Position numbers and translations under genes: made by a program. From IMG/VR virus record IMGVR_UViG_3300005937_000001, positions 1 through 64,000 of that record: a stretch of 64,000 nt of DNA; one strand, given 5' to 3'. Numbering within the stretch: the first letter of the stretch is position 1; the number at the start of each line of letters is the position of its first letter. Source of the DNA: a virus (Duplodnaviria; Caudoviricetes). Positions 6,617-20,732 of the stretch are shown here, piece after piece. The notes under the pieces are model-generated. The model was not told where the DNA came from. It did no database searches and saw only the letters and a list, made by a program, of their open reading frames with translations.

Positions 6617-6858
6617 GGGACATTCCAGGCACGAGCAGAATTTTTCAGGGCGGTCAGATGGTGCGTACGATCGTGTGGCGTGAGATCGCGACGGCGCCGA
6701 GAGATGGGAGGATCATCGAGGTTGCTTGGATGGAGGGACCACTGAAGGGGCGCACGCCGAAGCGTACGCAGTGGGTCAATGGGGAGTGGTTGGGTGGCTA
6801 TCACCCGACGCACTGGAGGACAATCGAGAGGATCGGGAGACAGTGGCAAGGACGTTGA
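6613..6858 (+). CDS. DUF551-like small phage protein
   Basis: WREIATAPRDG...PTHWR signature; ATGA coupling. Confidence 0.7.
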   Translation: MRDIPGTSRIFQGGQMVRTIVWREIATAPRDGRIIEVAWMEGPLKGRTPKRTQWVNGEWLGGYHPTHWRTIERIGRQWQGR

Positions 6859-7004
6859 TGGAAATACGGAAGCGCGAAGATGTTTTGATTGATAAGCTTT
6901 GGGACATGATCAAGCAGGAGGCGGACAAAGAAGTGAAGGCGGTGTATTTGGAGTTGGTTGCTGTGCTTATGCGACAGCAAGCGGAGAGGCCACAGACGAG
7001 ATGA
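6858..7004 (+). CDS. hypothetical protein, 48 aa
   Basis: TGATG coupling; amphipathic helix MEIRKREDVLIDKLWDMIKQ. Confidence 0.5.
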   Translation: MEIRKREDVLIDKLWDMIKQEADKEVKAVYLELVAVLMRQQAERPQTR

Positions 7005-13618: not shown

Positions 13619-13731
13619 ATTTTGATAATTGGAACGCGGTCAGCAAGCGCATTGTCATCGGATTGATGGTGGCGTTCAGCGTGGCGATGATCTTTCTGTT
13701 CTTAGCGTTGGCGTTCACAAATGGTGACTGA
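13615..13731 (+). CDS. 38-aa single-TM peptide (not in ORF track)
   Basis: GTG start; IVIGLMVAFSVAMIFLFLALAF; stop overlaps the portal ATG. Confidence 0.5.
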   Translation: MNFDNWNAVSKRIVIGLMVAFSVAMIFLFLALAFTNGD

Positions 13732-15230
13732 TGGCATCACTGCTGCAATTTCCGCGCATACGCTTTCCGTTTCAGGATAGCTTCAAGAACCTGCTCGCCG
13801 GCTTCGGCATGCCTGGTCGCGACAAAGCCGCGACGCAGCAGTTCACGCTCAACCTGCTCGATCCAGTGCAATTGCACAACGCCTACCGCGGCGACTGGGT
13901 GAGCAGGAAGATTTGCGACATACCGCCGTTCGATGCATGCCGCGCCTGGCGTGAATGGCAAGCCGAGCAGGACCAGATCGAAAAGATTGAGAAGGCTGAG
14001 AAGGACTTCAACCTGCAGCACAAGCTGATGTGGACGCTATCGAAGGCGCGTCTCTACGGCGGCGCTGTGATGGTGATGGGGATTGAAGGCCAGAAGTTCG
14101 AGGATGAACTGGACGTTGAAAGCGTAGGCGAGGGCGATCTCAAGTTCATTCACTGCGTAACACGTTGGCAGATCAGCGCGGGCCCGTTGATGCGCGACAT
14201 CACCAGCCCATGGTTCGGTGAGCCAACCTACTACTACCGCACTAACTCACCAGTGCCCGATCCGCCTGGTGGCGTGCAGCCACCCGAGGGATCGAGCTTG
14301 GGTCATCAACCTGGTCAAGACCTGTGGATACATCCAAGCCGTGTCGTGCGCCTGATTGGCCTCGACTATCCCGACTGGGAGCAGGCGCCCGATCAGTGGG
14401 GCGACAGCGCGCTGCAGCCAGTGTTCGACGCCATCGCCAACGCTGGCCTGGTCTCCAGCTCGATTGCGCACATGATCAGCGAAGCCAAGCTCGATGTGAT
14501 CAAGGTGCCTGGCTTGATGGAGATGTTGTCGACCACCGAGGGTAGCTCGAAGGTGCTCGATCGCTTCAGCCAGGGCAATGCCGCGAAGAGTGTCGTCAAT
14601 GCCACGCTGCTCGACAGCACCGAGGAGTGGGAACGCATCCAGATCGCGTTCGCCGGCATGGACAACGTCATGTCGATGTACTTGATGATCGCAGCGGGGG
14701 CTGCGGATATCCCCGCGACGCGCTTGCTTGGACGCGCGCCCGCGGGAGAGAATGCGACTGGCGAAAGCGACATGCGCAACTACTATGATCGCCTGCAGGC
14801 CGATCAGAAGGTACGCATTCAGCCGGCACTCGCGCGCCTCGATGAGGTGCTGCTGCGCCACGTGTTCGGCGATCGCGACGAGGACATCTACTACGAATGG
14901 TCGCCGCTCTGGCAGCTCGACGAAGAGCAGAAGGCCGCGGTCGCGCTCGCGAAAGCGCAGGCACACAAGATCGACGTCGATGCTGGCCTGATCAATCCCG
15001 AGGTGTTGCGTGAAGCGCGCGCTAATCAACTGATCGAGGATGGGTTCTATCCTGGCATCGAGGCAGCGATCGACGAGTACGAGCTTGAGCCCGACGAGGA
15101 AGATGAACAAGCTCACGCTGCGCTCGATCTGAAACTGAAAGAGCAGACACTCACCAATCTGAAAAAGCCGCAGCCAATGCAGAAGCCTGGTGCGGCGCCG
15201 AGGCCTAAGCTGGCCTCGTTGCAGAAGTAA
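13731..15230 (+). CDS. portal protein (DUF1073 type)
   Basis: DSFKNLLAGFG..GRDK, AYRGDWVSRKICDIPPFDACRAWRE, ARLYGG, IHPSRVVR, AGAADIPATRLLG, SDMRNYYD; between terL and MuF. Confidence 0.9.
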   Translation: MASLLQFPRIRFPFQDSFKNLLAGFGMPGRDKAATQQFTLNLLDPVQLHNAYRGDWVSRKICDIPPFDACRAWREWQAEQDQIEKIEKAEKDFNLQHKLMWTLSKARLYGGAVMVMGIEGQKFEDELDVESVGEGDLKFIHCVTRWQISAGPLMRDITSPWFGEPTYYYRTNSPVPDPPGGVQPPEGSSLGHQPGQDLWIHPSRVVRLIGLDYPDWEQAPDQWGDSALQPVFDAIANAGLVSSSIAHMISEAKLDVIKVPGLMEMLSTTEGSSKVLDRFSQGNAAKSVVNATLLDSTEEWERIQIAFAGMDNVMSMYLMIAAGAADIPATRLLGRAPAGENATGESDMRNYYDRLQADQKVRIQPALARLDEVLLRHVFGDRDEDIYYEWSPLWQLDEEQKAAVALAKAQAHKIDVDAGLINPEVLREARANQLIEDGFYPGIEAAIDEYELEPDEEDEQAHAALDLKLKEQTLTNLKKPQPMQKPGAAPRPKLASLQK

Positions 15231-15763: not shown

Positions 15764-15982
15764 ATGATCCTCAAGCTCACCGATCCTGATGGCGGTCCAA
15801 TCTGGATCGTTGCTCGCTGGGTGACGCAGCTCAAGTTGCCGCCCCGCGGTCAATACTCCGAGCATGCGCGCACGCTTATCGTGCTTGGTGCACGCGAACA
15901 GGCTGTGCGCGAAACGCCTGAGGAGATCGTCAAGCTTTTGAAGGACAACGATGACGCTGGCGCAACTGTTCGACGCGCATAA
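15764..15982 (+). CDS. FlbD-like small phage protein
   Basis: MILKLTDPDGGPIWI...TLIVL...AVRETPEEIVKLL pattern. Confidence 0.6.
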   Translation: MILKLTDPDGGPIWIVARWVTQLKLPPRGQYSEHARTLIVLGAREQAVRETPEEIVKLLKDNDDAGATVRRA

Positions 15983-18900
15983 AGCACGCGATCCAACGCA
16001 AACGATCAAGCTGCGCAAAGCGTTTCGTGCCACTGCTAAGCTTCGCTTGCGCCAACTGCGTGCGGCCATGCGCGTCGCTGTGGTCGACCACAACTTGCTC
16101 AGCTACTCGACCCAGGGCGCACTCGCTTACGCGCCCGCGCACACGCGCCTGGAAGCGTTCGTCGGTTGGATCGAGGCGACTGGTGGGCAGTATCTACTCG
16201 GCTCTGACTGGGCGCGGCCTTTCATCGAGCGTGCCTGGCGCATGGGTGAAGCTAAGGCGGTGCGCGAGACTGGCAAGGCTGCTGGCCCCGACGAGTCCGA
16301 TGACCTGGTCGCACGGGCGCGCAACGAGATCACTGGCATTCTTGCTGCACTGGTGCAGCAGACCAGCCGGCAAGCGGCGAGCATCATCGCTCGTGGTACG
16401 CGTCGGCAACAAGCGTTGCGCGAGTTGTTCGCTGTGTTCGATCGAGTTGCGCTGCCGCGCCTGATCGCGGTGGCCGACGTTACGGTGATCAAGGCCTACA
16501 ACGAAGCCAAGTTGAATTGCTATGCCGCCGGCGGCATCAAGCACGTGGGCGTCCATGCTGAAACACTTCCTAACAATCATCGAACGACTCGCATGGATGC
16601 TGCTGATCGTGTTGCGACGCCGGAGGAGATACTTGCCGAGGAGGAAGAGCTTGTCGGCATCCTGACCGCCGGCGACGACAAGGTCTGTCAGCGCTGCGAG
16701 GACTGGGCAGAAGATTCGCCCTACGAGATCGAAGAGGTGCGTGACGTCTATCCACTGCACCCGCGCTGTCGCTGTGCAGTCTATCCATGGGAAGACCTGC
16801 GCTTCAAAGGTGAGGACAAGGAGTGGGAGGAAGAGAAGCACCCGCGCGTGGCTGCGGGCTCGCCTGAGGGCGGACGCTTCACGAGCTGGGGCGGTGCCGA
16901 GCACGGCGAAGAGGTTTCAGAGAAACAAGCTGCATCGGTCAAAGCGCTGGCCGAAGCGGTGCCAGGCCTGAAGAATTTCCTACCCTATATGGCGCCCGAT
17001 GAAGTCAATCGGGTGAAGAAGGCCAACGTCAAGCGCATGGTCGAGCTGTTCACCACGTTTCCGGTGGAAGCTGAGGAGATGGCCGCGGTTGCTTACTCTG
17101 GCGGCGCCAAGCGTGGTTGGTATCGCAAGAGCGCAAAGGCTTTGCTCGACGTGTTCGGTGCAGTCGACGCGCCGCGTTTTGCTTCGCTGCTGGCAGCGCT
17201 CTCGCCGCAGACTGGCGTCGAGGATAACGCGATCAATGCACTCAACACCTGGACCAACTGGGTGCGCGCTGGCCGGCCGACCGATCGTGACAGCATCGTC
17301 AAGGTACTCGGCCAGAGCGTGCAAGGTGAGAAAGGCGCCGAGAGCATCCTGCCTGCGTGGATCAACAACTCAGTCACCGCACTGAGCACGCCCGATCCCG
17401 AGGCGATCGTGCTGTCTGGCCCGAAGGTCGATTCGTTCGCCTACAATCTTCGCGACCACGTCAACGCGGTCACGCTCGACAGCTGGATGGCGAACTATCT
17501 CGGCATTAAGCAGGCACTGTTCGCACGGCGCCAGGCGGTGCCTGGTGTGCGACCAGGCAAGGGGCCGATGTACATCGCCACTGCGGCGATGACGCGACGA
17601 GCTGCTGAGATACTGACGCAACGCACCGGTGAGAAGTGGACGCCGGCAGAAATTCAAGAGACCATCTGGTCGTGGGCAAAGACGCTGTACGAACGCGCGA
17701 GCGCGGACAAAACCACAGTGGCGCAGCTGCTCGAAGCTGGCAGCGTCACGCACAAAGACATCGCCGACACGCCAGACTTTGCGATACTGTTCACGCAGAA
17801 CGTCTATCGCAAAATTCTCGAGGAAGGCGGCTATGGCAAGCAAGCGGCGGCGATTGCAGCAAGCAATCGAGAACCTGATCTCACTGCAGGAGGAAGAAGC
17901 AGCCTTACGTCAGCCGAAGGCTCAGGCATTCCTCAGGATGCTTTCACCCGTCACCTCCTCAAAGCCGCGGGGCGGCTCGACCTCCTCCGAGAAGAGCGAG
18001 CCAAGCGAAAAGCCGGAGAAGAAGAGGTAGACAGCCTCGACGCCTGGATCGAGTTCGAAGACTACGATCCTGACGAGCCACGCGATCCACTCGGCAAGTG
18101 GACCACTGGCGGTAGTGGGCATCCAGGCGCAGGCTACAGCGCCAGCGCTCGCATCGACAGCAAGGGCGTCATCCACACCTCGAACGTTTATGACGCGCAG
18201 CGCGCGCTGTTCGAAAACCGCAAGGTCGAGCTAAAGCAAATCAAGCAGGTTTCAACGCTGATTAAGCGCCTGGGTGAGACCGCAGCCGAGATGGCCGAGC
18301 ATGGCGAGAAGGCGCCGGTATTCAATCTCTGCAACGTCAGCGTCGAAGGCACCAACCTCTTTTGCTCCGAGCACAAGGGCATCCCGCGCATCAAGATGCC
18401 GGTGATTCCGCGCAAGCAGACCAAGGAGTTCATCAAGCACCTTGAGGCGCGCGGTTACAAAACCGAGAAGAGCACCGAGCGCGCTGATCACTTACGCGCC
18501 ACGCAAGACGAGATCGACGGCGCCAAGGTGGCGCAGTCAATGGCGCGCATCGATAGAGAAGGCTTCTACAAGCGCCTGGTGGTGTCGCGCGACGACTACA
18601 TCGTCGATGGCCATCACACCTGGGCGGCGCAGCTCGGTGTTGATGCGCGCGACGGCACGCTCAAAGGCGACAAGACGGTCAAGATCACGCGCGTCGACAT
18701 CGGCATCATTCAGCTGCTGCACGAAGCCAACGCTTGGACCACCAAGCAAGGCATCCAGCGCAAGGCGGCTGGTGATGCACTCGACTTCAATCCCGATCAG
18801 CCGCGCGTGCCCGCGGGTGAGAGCACTGGCGGTCAATGGACCAGTGGCGGCGGTGGCATCGAGCATGGAATGATCGAGGTGCCGGCGCGCACCTTCGTGG

Positions 18901-20732
18901 AGTCGCGCGACGTCTCGACCCGTCAACAGTTTCTCTCACCGCATCCTGCGGAAGAGCTGGGCCAGCACACGCTGCTGCTCAATCGTGAGGGCAACGTTGG
19001 CATCTCAATCGATCAGCACGGCGATGTGCAGAATGTGTTCAACAACGGCGGACCCAAAGGAGGTGCAGCAAAAGCGATGGTAGCAGCAATCGAGCACGGC
19101 GGCCGTACGCTCGACTGCTACGATGGGTTTTTACCTAGCTACTACGGCCAGTTCGGATTCAAAGAAACGCAAAGAATGAAGTTCAATCCGGCGTACGCAC
19201 CGCCAGGATGGGACTTTGCGAAATACGACAACCCCGATATTGTCTTCATGAGTTGGGGCGGCTATGTGCAGGGAGGCGAGCGTGAAGCGATTGCGCGCGC
19301 CTCCTCGCGCAAGGACTGGATCAAGGTTGAGAGGACGCAAAGCTATGGCGACGACTGGGATGCCGCAAAAGCCGCAAGCCGAGACGCAGCAGCAGTTGGA
19401 GCTGCAGTTCATCGAGGAGCTGGAGCAGCACCACGGCCGCAAACTCAGTCCGCAGGAAGCCGCGCTGGCTTTGGAGCAGGCGAAAGCTCTGGGGGAGATA
19501 AGCTCCTCCTAGTCTCCGAGCAGCCTGGCGCGGCCAAGCTCGACAAGTGGCAAGCGGAGATCAAGGCTCGACGCGACGAGAAAGAAAAAGCCGAGCAGTT
19601 CGGCGATCGCGAAGACGATCAGCTCGCCTACATGGCCAAGGCGCTGAAAGAGTACAGCGATATTGACCAGCTCGATGCGGGCCGTGCTGGCATCAACGTT
19701 GTCTACGGTGGGCCGCACGATAGCGACGAGACCAAGCTGCTCGCTGCTGTGCTCACTCGCTTCAACCCACGTCAAGGCGTCGCCCGCATCACGCTCTCTG
19801 GTGGCATCGATGCCGACGCGCACATCAAGGCACTGCAACAAGTCGTAGCACGTTACGGGTCTCAGGCTGAACGCATCGAGGCGCAAATCTGGGGTGACGA
19901 CCTAGAGAGCGCAATCATTTACGAGAAGGCTGGCTTCAAGATCAGCGGCACCACCGATCTTGGGATGACGCGGCTAGTTTATGGCAAGGAAGGACCCACC
20001 GCACGCGAGCAGGAGGCGGCAGAGAAGCTCGCGGTCGCGCGGAAGAACGAAGTTGAGTCGAAGGCTCGCATCGCTGCCGCGCAGCTCGACTTCAACCCCG
20101 ACAACGTCGAGTTCACTGACGCCGACGACACGTTCGAACTTAATGGCGTGAAGATGCATTTCGCCGGCTCCTACACGCGCGGGTCTGCGAAGGTCAAAAT
20201 CTATCATCAGCATGTGGCGCTTGCCAGCGTCGCCGGCGTCACTGCGCATGAGATCGGACACCGCAAGCTCGACGCCTTGCGCGCACGCTACCGCGACGAA
20301 TACCGCGACATGCTGGCCGAGCCTGGTGCGCCGCCTGATCCACAAGGCGAACGTTGGTGGCAACAGCGCGGCGGCCACGAGACCGTCATGATGGCGAGTG
20401 GTGAGCTGCGCGAACCCTACGCCTCAAAATATCCGGTCTATCATCAGTGGGAGACCAACGTTGAACTTAAGCGTGACAAGCTGCGCAAGAGCGACGGTGT
20501 CACCGACTACTCGAAGGAATACTGGAAGGGCTTCGAGAAGGGCGAGATACCGATCGACAAGGCGATGCACGAGACCATCGCCGAGATGACGCGGATCAAG
20601 TTCGAGACTGGCAAGCTGCCAGGCTCACCCGAGTGGAAGACGCTGTACAAAATGATCGAAGAGAACTGGTCGAAGATGTCACCGCTTGAACGTGCAGTCG
20701 AACAGCACAGCAGTGAAAAGGCGAGATGGTGA
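15951..20732 (+). CDS. MuF (Mu gpF / SPP1 gp7-like) minor head protein fused to several enzymatic modules (polyvalent protein, 1593 aa)
   Basis: ARDPTQT N-terminus and TAGDDKVCQRC...HPRCRC MuF core; then a WY...AALSPQ...GPKVDSF...VTLDSW module, ParB-like ATQDEI...DGHH, GNAT-like LDCYDGFL..YY.QFGF, a second GNAT-like IYEKAGF, and zincin HEIGH...HETIAE; between portal and protease. Confidence 0.85.
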   Translation: MTLAQLFDAHKARDPTQTIKLRKAFRATAKLRLRQLRAAMRVAVVDHNLLSYSTQGALAYAPAHTRLEAFVGWIEATGGQYLLGSDWARPFIERAWRMGEAKAVRETGKAAGPDESDDLVARARNEITGILAALVQQTSRQAASIIARGTRRQQALRELFAVFDRVALPRLIAVADVTVIKAYNEAKLNCYAAGGIKHVGVHAETLPNNHRTTRMDAADRVATPEEILAEEEELVGILTAGDDKVCQRCEDWAEDSPYEIEEVRDVYPLHPRCRCAVYPWEDLRFKGEDKEWEEEKHPRVAAGSPEGGRFTSWGGAEHGEEVSEKQAASVKALAEAVPGLKNFLPYMAPDEVNRVKKANVKRMVELFTTFPVEAEEMAAVAYSGGAKRGWYRKSAKALLDVFGAVDAPRFASLLAALSPQTGVEDNAINALNTWTNWVRAGRPTDRDSIVKVLGQSVQGEKGAESILPAWINNSVTALSTPDPEAIVLSGPKVDSFAYNLRDHVNAVTLDSWMANYLGIKQALFARRQAVPGVRPGKGPMYIATAAMTRRAAEILTQRTGEKWTPAEIQETIWSWAKTLYERASADKTTVAQLLEAGSVTHKDIADTPDFAILFTQNVYRKILEEGGYGKQAAAIAASNREPDLTAGGRSSLTSAEGSGIPQDAFTRHLLKAAGRLDLLREERAKRKAGEEEVDSLDAWIEFEDYDPDEPRDPLGKWTTGGSGHPGAGYSASARIDSKGVIHTSNVYDAQRALFENRKVELKQIKQVSTLIKRLGETAAEMAEHGEKAPVFNLCNVSVEGTNLFCSEHKGIPRIKMPVIPRKQTKEFIKHLEARGYKTEKSTERADHLRATQDEIDGAKVAQSMARIDREGFYKRLVVSRDDYIVDGHHTWAAQLGVDARDGTLKGDKTVKITRVDIGIIQLLHEANAWTTKQGIQRKAAGDALDFNPDQPRVPAGESTGGQWTSGGGGIEHGMIEVPARTFVESRDVSTRQQFLSPHPAEELGQHTLLLNREGNVGISIDQHGDVQNVFNNGGPKGGAAKAMVAAIEHGGRTLDCYDGFLPSYYGQFGFKETQRMKFNPAYAPPGWDFAKYDNPDIVFMSWGGYVQGGEREAIARASSRKDWIKVERTQSYGDDWDAAKAASRDAAAVGAAVHRGAGAAPRPQTQSAGSRAGFGAGESSGGDKLLLVSEQPGAAKLDKWQAEIKARRDEKEKAEQFGDREDDQLAYMAKALKEYSDIDQLDAGRAGINVVYGGPHDSDETKLLAAVLTRFNPRQGVARITLSGGIDADAHIKALQQVVARYGSQAERIEAQIWGDDLESAIIYEKAGFKISGTTDLGMTRLVYGKEGPTAREQEAAEKLAVARKNEVESKARIAAAQLDFNPDNVEFTDADDTFELNGVKMHFAGSYTRGSAKVKIYHQHVALASVAGVTAHEIGHRKLDALRARYRDEYRDMLAEPGAPPDPQGERWWQQRGGHETVMMASGELREPYASKYPVYHQWETNVELKRDKLRKSDGVTDYSKEYWKGFEKGEIPIDKAMHETIAEMTRIKFETGKLPGSPEWKTLYKMIEENWSKMSPLERAVEQHSSEKARW
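17833..18030 (+). CDS. nested +1-frame ORF inside the MuF polyprotein (65 aa)
   Basis: AGGAAGG RBS; MASKRRRLQQAIENLISLQEEEAALRQPKAQAFLRML...; host-frame codons over the first half are unusually A/T-ending. Confidence 0.5.
   Translation: MASKRRRLQQAIENLISLQEEEAALRQPKAQAFLRMLSPVTSSKPRGGSTSSEKSEPSEKPEKKR
19345..19512 (+). CDS. nested +1-frame ORF inside the MuF polyprotein (55 aa)
   Basis: GAGGA RBS 9 nt before ATG; MATTGMPQKPQAETQQQLELQFIEELEQHHGRKLSPQEAALALEQAKALGEISSS; +1 frame is CAG/CTG/GAG/TTC/ATC-rich while the host frame is GCA/GGA/GCT low-complexity. Confidence 0.65.
   Translation: MATTGMPQKPQAETQQQLELQFIEELEQHHGRKLSPQEAALALEQAKALGEISSS

Follow-up and report, generated by a model that had tools for sequence, protein, structure and literature searches.

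In phage lambda, the small gene Rz1 is embedded in the +1 frame of Rz and its product binds the product of the surrounding gene; relatives of this pair are overlapped, separated or unimolecular (PMC6139136, PMC5295617). In the AtaT/AtaR, TacT/TacA and KacT/KacA pairs, a toxin with the fold of the GCN5-related N-acetyltransferases (GNATs) is encoded together with a small ribbon-helix-helix (RHH) protein (PMC6698736, PMC7470980), and the C-terminal helices of KacA impair acetyl-coenzyme A (acetyl-CoA) binding by KacT (PMC6698736). For the polyvalent proteins of phages, packaging and injection are presumed (Iyer et al. 2017, PMC5512222). Here, we analyze an open reading frame (ORF) of 55 codons that lies in the +1 frame inside a gene for a giant polyvalent virion protein, at the end of a module with the GNAT fold. 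It was found in positions 1 to 64,000 (the window) of IMG/VR virus record IMGVR_UViG_3300005937_000001 (87,424 bases, about 98% complete, from a rhizosphere metagenome). A first-pass annotation of the window had taken it for a hidden gene, once separate, that encodes a small partner of the GNAT module (immunity protein, antitoxin or chaperone). We find that it is very probably a real, translated gene, as judged from the comparison of related loci.

The closest case in architecture, though not in homology, is Rz/Rz1. At both loci, a small phage gene is completely contained in a larger one, on the same strand, in the +1 frame and with start signals of its own (here inferred from sequence). The products are partners, as shown for Rz/Rz1 and predicted here, and relatives have alternative arrangements (here separate genes at locus L045 and possibly a fusion at locus L035). 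However, the proteins and the process are unrelated, and there is no membrane or lysis function here. The surrounding gene here encodes a virion effector of ≈ 1600 residues with multiple modules, the overlapped part is an unconstrained linker, and the embedded gene seems to be the older, conserved one. The bacterial gene comS is likewise very small and lies in another frame inside a giant multi-modular gene, srfAB of Bacillus subtilis, with which it is co-transcribed (PMC12915044), but ComS acts in an unrelated pathway (competence) and has no family of free-standing homologs. The survey of polyvalent proteins (PMC5512222) treated these proteins as single-frame, and the words "overlap" and "frameshift" are absent from its text; a literature search found no description of nested genes in polyvalent proteins. 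Embedded partner genes and antidote-like partners of GNAT proteins are known kinds, whereas the family of small proteins described below is new.

The nested frame and its start signals

The analysis refers to the following features.

15951-20732, plus strand: host gene, a MuF-type polyvalent virion protein of 1593 residues (from the ORF list and translation); its frame 0 reads through the nested gene

18870-19373, plus strand: first GNAT-fold module, host residues 974-1141; its final residues, SYGDDWDAAK, overlap the start of the nested gene

19329-19335, plus strand: Shine-Dalgarno (SD)-like sequence GAGAGGA, from host codons GAG-AGG-A, 9 nucleotides before the nested ATG; GAGGA is 19331-19335

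19345-19512, plus strand: putative nested +1-frame gene for protein P0002, 55 residues plus TAG at 19510-19512; profile match E 6e-25; 23 distinct loci

19360-19362, plus strand: second in-frame ATG (Met6), a possible alternative start, from host GAT-G

19375-19520, plus strand: host-frame passenger linker rich in A, G, S and R, stop-free, unconserved in sequence and with the lowest codon adaptation in the gene

19399-19497, plus strand: conserved core of the small protein, residues 19-51, helix-loop-helix ending LEQA[KR]ALGE, from alignments and structure prediction; predicted contact residues 22-30 and 35-51

Since (19345 - 15951) mod 3 = 1, the frame of the ORF is +1 with respect to the host gene. 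Its ATG arises from host codons TAT-GGC (Tyr-Gly of SYGDDWD). The SD-like sequence, this ATG, the 9-nucleotide spacing and the 55-residue peptide were all present as the first-pass annotation had described them, and so were the codon usage of the two frames and the low-complexity character of the host frame over the same bases. The G+C content of third codon positions was 0.82 in the +1 frame (19345-19509) and 0.38 in the host frame, compared with 0.73 in reference genes of the window; an index like the codon adaptation index gave 0.66, 0.44 and 0.71, respectively. Thus, the +1 frame is genome-like and the host frame is atypical. The five lowest-scoring of 1539 host-frame windows of 55 codons all begin at 19332-19362.

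Related DNA carries the same arrangement. At locus L001, the host frame continues across the linker, where indels of 3 and 21 nucleotides set it apart from the window, and the same +1 ORF, GAGAGGA and ATG are present; L002 also carries the nested ORF (tblastn E 1e-14). A search of viral and metagenome contigs with the peptide alignment returned more nested copies and two free-standing copies on bacterial-looking contigs. For the comparisons below, loci were collected with a query that is independent of the small ORF, a profile of the GNAT module; this gave 42 viral loci, to which the window, L001 and L002 were added. The small-protein profile found the ORF in 29 loci, representing 23 distinct sequences, across which the identity of the GNAT module falls to about 46%. 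In all 23, the small ORF is nested and +1 relative to the GNAT module, its core is preceded by an ATG, and the host frame runs past the stop of the small ORF. The window ORF matched the family profiles with E 6e-25 (profile of its relatives) and 4e-17 (alignment A5). None of 57 homologous giant proteins has the peptide in its main frame, which excludes a compensated double frameshift in this genome. Neither a nucleotide search with the region nor a tblastn search with the peptide matched any of 50,697 isolate phage records; no cultured phage that carries the gene was found.

GC-rich genomes contain many spurious ORFs, and 101 ORFs of at least 40 residues overlap 11 kb here. The nested ORF could then be a chance open frame that is not expressed. 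The conservation just described, the selection results given below and the homology to a free-standing family at E 6e-25 refute this explanation as far as computation can, and we consider it the least credible of those discussed here.

The start signals are kept beyond the window. The AGG at 19332, within the SD-like site, is the sole AGG codon of the host gene, which has 114 Arg codons in all, and out-of-frame ATGs with an SD-like site upstream number only three across the 4.8 kb of that gene. At L001, L002, L003/L022, L006/L020 and L004/L018, the SD position, equally far from the ATG, holds GAGAGGA, GGAAGGA, AAAGGAG or AAGGG. All five nearest distinct relatives encode the SD Arg with AGG, which accounts for 1-20% of the Arg codons of their host genes. 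Of the seven closest distinct loci, six have the first ATG (from TAT-G) and four the second (from GAT-G); L007 has the second only, and each locus has at least one. The RNA around the start in the window was less structured than in 198 of 200 shuffles, which lends weak support. A scan of 18900-19800 for promoters and terminators found no internal promoter-like site, and the nested gene is probably transcribed on, and read from, the late mRNA of the host gene. An upstream CCUCC able to pair with the SD was also considered and dropped, since it is not conserved in L001.

These data also bear on a different route into the +1 frame. If ribosomes underwent a programmed +1 frameshift close to the end of the GNAT module, the product would be a truncated polyvalent protein ending in the two-helix domain, and no free protein would be made. 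The +1 frame of the window is open for 31 codons upstream of the ATG, and an apparent in-frame C-terminal fusion at L035 (see below) suggests that a covalent form may be viable. Yet the core is preceded by an ATG in 23 of 23 loci, the SD-like site built from a rare AGG codon is conserved in the GC-rich group, no shared slippery motif was seen, and the family normally consists of free-standing proteins of 37-60 residues. Moreover, the +1 frame of L057 and L029 opens just one codon ahead of the ATG, which leaves hardly any room for entry by frameshifting and indicates independent initiation. Frameshifting is therefore improbable.

Selection on the two frames

Position and identity statistics were obtained from 30 gap-free codon columns of the core in the 23 sequences. 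Nucleotide entropy was 1.12, 0.63 and 1.46 at the first, second and third +1 codon positions. Hence, variability is lowest at +1 position 2, the host wobble position, the opposite of what is expected of coding in the host frame. The mean pairwise amino acid identity was 0.48 in the +1 frame and 0.26 in the host frame, and the BLOSUM62 score per site was 2.36 and 0.68, respectively. Isolated differences in the last 19 codons were also sorted by their effect in each frame, which gave the following rates per site.

Silent in the +1 frame and silent in the host frame: 50.8

Silent in the +1 frame, amino acid change in the host frame: 50.8

Amino acid change in the +1 frame, silent in the host frame: 0.4

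Amino acid change in both frames: 9.9

Changes that alter the +1 protein and are silent in the host protein were ≈ 129-fold rarer than changes with the converse effect. Host-altering changes were as frequent as fully silent ones. Changes of the host protein are thus effectively neutral across the overlap, whereas those of the +1 protein are strongly rejected.

The host frame is nevertheless stop-free in 23 of 23 loci. When the synonymous codons of the small ORF were re-drawn from each locus's own codon usage, the host frame stayed open in a mean of 19% of trials. The summed log10 p of this test was -20.8, a value that overstates the evidence because the loci are related. In four of eight free-standing homologs, the corresponding frame contains stops. 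Together with the selection against +1 changes, this openness beyond expectation indicates that both frames are maintained, for different reasons. The alignments thus point to DNA with dual coding, in which the +1 frame is under purifying selection, whereas selection on the host frame only keeps out stops, so that the modules further along stay joined to the protein. The hidden gene proposed by the first-pass annotation is borne out to this extent: its ATG and frame are kept in 23 distinct loci, and the purifying selection falls on the +1 frame only.

The same host frame is unconserved, of low complexity and has the worst codon usage in the gene, as might be expected if the giant ORF were an annotation illusion, with two genes flanking an ordinary small gene and frame 0 across the overlap never translated. 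Against this speak the absence of stops from the host frame across the overlap in all 23 distinct loci, compared with 19% of open frames expected, the stops that free-standing copies often have in that frame, and the sizes of the window-L001 indels (3 and 21 nucleotides). In addition, the upstream part is not closed by a stop codon, and neither a start nor an SD that could serve a downstream gene was seen to be conserved. We regard such an illusion as very improbable.

The window contains another +1 ORF in the host gene, at 17833-18030, which is preceded by AGGAAGG and has an ATG from TAT-G. In L001, it is intact, with 69% identity compared with 74% for the host frame; it has no match in L002. 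Counted by +1 codon position, the differences are 9/17/12, with the maximum at the host wobble position. On this evidence, it is indistinguishable from a passenger frame.

The small-protein family and the GNAT module

The first-pass annotation had suggested that homologs of the 55-residue product be sought as separate genes. They exist: the profile of the nested peptide matched at least 169 called small proteins, and among 1.84 billion representatives the family comprises 587 clusters at E ≤ 1e-3 and 194 at E ≤ 1e-10. Its members are mostly 37-60 residues long and are annotated "hypothetical" throughout. The family core of ≈ 37 residues has the pattern ...EE..II..LER..GR.LT.QEINLSLEQARALGEL-COOH and lies almost always at the protein's very C-terminal end; some proteins contain two copies. 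Most members end at the ...GE[LIV] motif, and the window peptide ends ...ALGEISSS, four residues past it. Nested versions carry an extra N-terminal extension of about 15-20 residues, the sequence of which is set by the host-frame coding for the conserved GNAT-module end. The AlphaFold 2 (AF2) model of the small protein is a helix-loop-helix (helices 10-30 and 36-49) without a strand, with a mean predicted local distance difference test score (pLDDT) of 82 and above 90 in the core. Scans of the small protein and its relatives with Pfam, PHROGs, NCBIfam and PADLOC gave no family; a profile search of the PDB and a Foldseek search with the two-helix model gave nothing significant, and the ESM Atlas no usable match.

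Free-standing copies were found on an integrase-bearing island (L011), beside a DUF3631 gene (L012) and, in three copies, in a Roseiarcus metagenome-assembled genome (MAG; G001). This MAG was the sole carrier of the family from a search of species-representative genomes, and the family was absent from the 300 other searched genomes of its order. Its copies are on contigs C3, C200 and C178 (L015-L017, L060-L062), each less than ≈ 1 kb from a contig end, and the DNA flanking two of them is 87.5% identical over 1 kb, as expected for a repeated mobile element. The distribution of the family is thus patchy and of the mobile-element type. Pfam scans of the neighbors of free-standing copies gave no informative family. 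Four proteins (P0180, P0184, P0185 and P0187) have a common N-terminal domain of ≈ 65 residues (..KYGSLEG.PVRF.D.EAWVF...) before the small domain, which is a possible clue to the function of free-standing copies.

The GNAT module of the host protein has no significant Pfam match and is known from fold prediction. Its AF2 model (pLDDT 94) has the canonical GNAT order of strands and helices, and every top Foldseek match in the PDB is a GNAT acetyltransferase (probability 0.99-1.0, TM-score ≈ 0.5). The loop NNGGPKGG between β4 and α3 is kept in 33 homologs; its position is the one at which, as established for this fold, GNATs bind the pyrophosphate of CoA.

A controlled complex prediction of the window GNAT module with the peptide gave an interface score (ipSAE) of 0.81 (runs 0.81, 0.89 and 0.81), and the best of three controls scored 0.01. 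In the calibration of this score, the mark was reached by 58 of 80 solved complexes and by 2 of 110 mismatched pairs. The runs shared at least 93% of contacts, and the pLDDT of the partner was at least 77. In the predicted interface, the C-terminal helix of the peptide (37-51, including the invariant Gln45) meets GNAT residues 56-66, 84-91, 117-122 and 144-152. These are the end of β4, the P-loop, the start of α3, and the end of β5 with the start of α4; that is, the acetyl-CoA face. A sequence search found no solved homolog of either chain, which makes it unlikely that the prediction reproduced a solved structure. The model, and the strict linkage of the small ORF to the 3' end of the module, fit the GNAT partner that had been proposed. 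We consider it likely that the small protein binds the GNAT module. The predicted contact lies over the acetyl-CoA cleft, as expected of an inhibitor, and whether the small protein would also act as one is evenly balanced in our judgment.

Like the GNAT-RHH pairs, the locus combines a GNAT-fold enzyme with a co-encoded small protein, and the model puts the C-terminal helix of the small protein on the same GNAT face as that of KacA. In contrast, an RHH DNA-binding domain is absent from the small protein, and neither its sequence nor its fold shows detectable homology to the antitoxins. Its gene is nested in +1 in a multi-module gene of 1593 codons and not in an operon with the antitoxin upstream of a stand-alone GNAT, and the predicted GNAT is one module of a protein that would be injected with the virion. 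The analogy to AtaT/TacT drawn by the first-pass annotation therefore holds for the functional likeness and fails for antitoxin homology and gene arrangement: the pair may resemble GNAT toxin-antitoxin pairs in its proposed mechanism but is not a member of them.

Two loci show other arrangements. At L045:1979-2485 (minus strand), the polyvalent ORF stops right after the GNAT module, and a convergent gene has its stop 8 nucleotides from that stop. The longer protein that this gene encodes is of the P0147/P0199/P0206 type and has the small domain at its end. L045 is thus a separated architecture of the GNAT/small-protein pair. At L035:1117-2199, the GNAT ORF ends in a weakly similar two-helix segment fused in frame, below the profile threshold; we tentatively call this a fused architecture, or else a chance similarity. 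An ADP-ribosylglycohydrolase-like gene in another frame (L035:2045-3124) overlaps the preceding GNAT ORF.

A second, unrelated family of small ORFs (≈ 70 residues) occupies the same +1 slot at L037:1691-2113, L040:1919-2134 and L047:767-1099. Its motif is ...LP.E...W.N.L.P......E..L..VGE.DF...W......L..., and it follows divergent GNAT modules that lack the first family. In P0180, a bacterial protein of 227 residues, a domain of the second family stands after two tandem copies of the first.

The full chain up to binding, a separately initiated overlapping gene whose product binds the GNAT module, is in our judgment somewhat favored. Several observations weigh against it. About five distinct variants of the GNAT module lack the nested ORF. 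Within the flanks read around free-standing copies there was no homolog of the GNAT module, and the MAG with three copies had no match to the module either (this genome is incomplete). The family is thus not always dependent on this GNAT. Both predicted interfaces consist of residues that are conserved anyway, and the binding is model output. The sequences behind the selection statistics are kin, so that combined p-values are not independent. Lastly, the sequencing runs listed for the stretch are two DNA metagenome runs and no RNA run.

Some of these observations would be accounted for if the nested gene were translated but its product were a small regulator or adaptor with another target, such as a host or mobile-element protein, that travels with the GNAT module merely as a neighbor since the modules were fused. 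The free-standing homologs on integrase-bearing islands and beside the DUF3631 gene, without the module nearby, the MAG, and the fusion of the small domain to unrelated N-terminal regions are in line with such a role. It does not explain as readily why 23 distinct loci, down to about 46% module identity, all have the ORF in one and the same place and frame behind the GNAT module, why the separate gene of L045 still abuts the GNAT ORF, or why the complex prediction passed with clean controls. Furthermore, the presence of a second, unrelated family in the same slot of other GNAT variants suggests that the slot itself matters. A target other than the GNAT module is therefore unlikely, though it is the rival that we take most seriously.

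Host gene, origin and biological meaning

The host gene lies just 3' of an ORF at 13731-15230; the counterpart of that upstream gene in L001 and L002 matches Phage_portal_3 (Pfam). The N terminus of the host protein has matches to MuF/head morphogenesis (PHROG); the protein also matches DUF7178, phrog_2859 and, in one segment, phrog_2563. Its closest full-length relative is P0003 of L001 (65% identity). A MuF-type head-anchoring N terminus followed by enzyme-like modules, GNATs included, and a portal gene upstream in relatives are the features of polyvalent virion proteins, and the architecture fits their description (PMC5512222). A tag that recurs in the host protein, ...[FY]NPDQPR.P.G...GGQWTSGG..., stands before successive modules (16812-16895, 18060-18113 and 18783-18857). 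In L002, a copy of the NPDQPR/GGQWTSGG tag at about 6817-6870 comes directly after the stop of the nested ORF; the nested gene thus fills the gap between the end of one module and the next tag.

In the mechanism that we favor, ribosomes would start at the internal SD and ATG on the late mRNA. The small protein would then bind the GNAT module encoded upstream of it, with its conserved C-terminal helix across the acetyl-CoA cleft (β4/P-loop/α3 and β5/α4). Until packaging of the polyvalent protein and its injection into the next host, the bound acetyltransferase would thus be held inactive, or shielded, in the cell that makes it. Through nesting, effector module and partner would form a single unit that recombination cannot separate, and the two would stay together while polyvalent genes exchange modules.

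As to origin, a gene ending in the GNAT module, the small partner gene and a gene for the downstream module may formerly have been separate, as they are at L045. Once the first stop codon was lost, the large ORF would have extended through the small gene, in the -1 register, and become fused to the module that follows. Since the small protein is widespread as an ordinary gene and the host frame over the overlap is unconserved and off-frame-like in composition, a fusion of separate genes is the simplest history. This agrees with the original separateness that the first-pass annotation had assumed. A comparable route has been proposed for embedded spanins (PMC6139136). The larger gene thus seems to have grown over an older small one, the reverse of classical overprinting.

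The locus appears to be an unusually clean case of dual coding, in which selection acts wholly on the embedded frame and the host frame is merely kept open. It also adds an unannotated family of small proteins (587 clusters) to the catalog. Gene callers miss nested genes where a giant ORF is present, and recoding or engineering of such phage genes would silently destroy them.

A broader rule can be imagined, in which hidden out-of-frame partner genes are general among polyvalent effectors and each potentially harmful module carries its own antidote. The antidote would lie inside the coding sequence of the module or in its trailing linker, so that the two shuffle together, and free-standing copies of the antidote alone would serve in defense. 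This idea comes from the second, unrelated family in the same +1 slot and from its fusion to two copies of the first family in one bacterial protein. We hold this rule to be doubtful. If the rule is true, free-standing copies in bacterial islands and satellites would neutralize the injected GNAT effector of incoming phages, like orphan immunity genes.

Polyvalent virion proteins are thought to be the first weapons that a phage injects, and how the cell that produces them tolerates their enzyme modules has so far been unexplained. A conserved, antidote-like gene in the second frame of the effector gene is a concrete candidate answer to this question.

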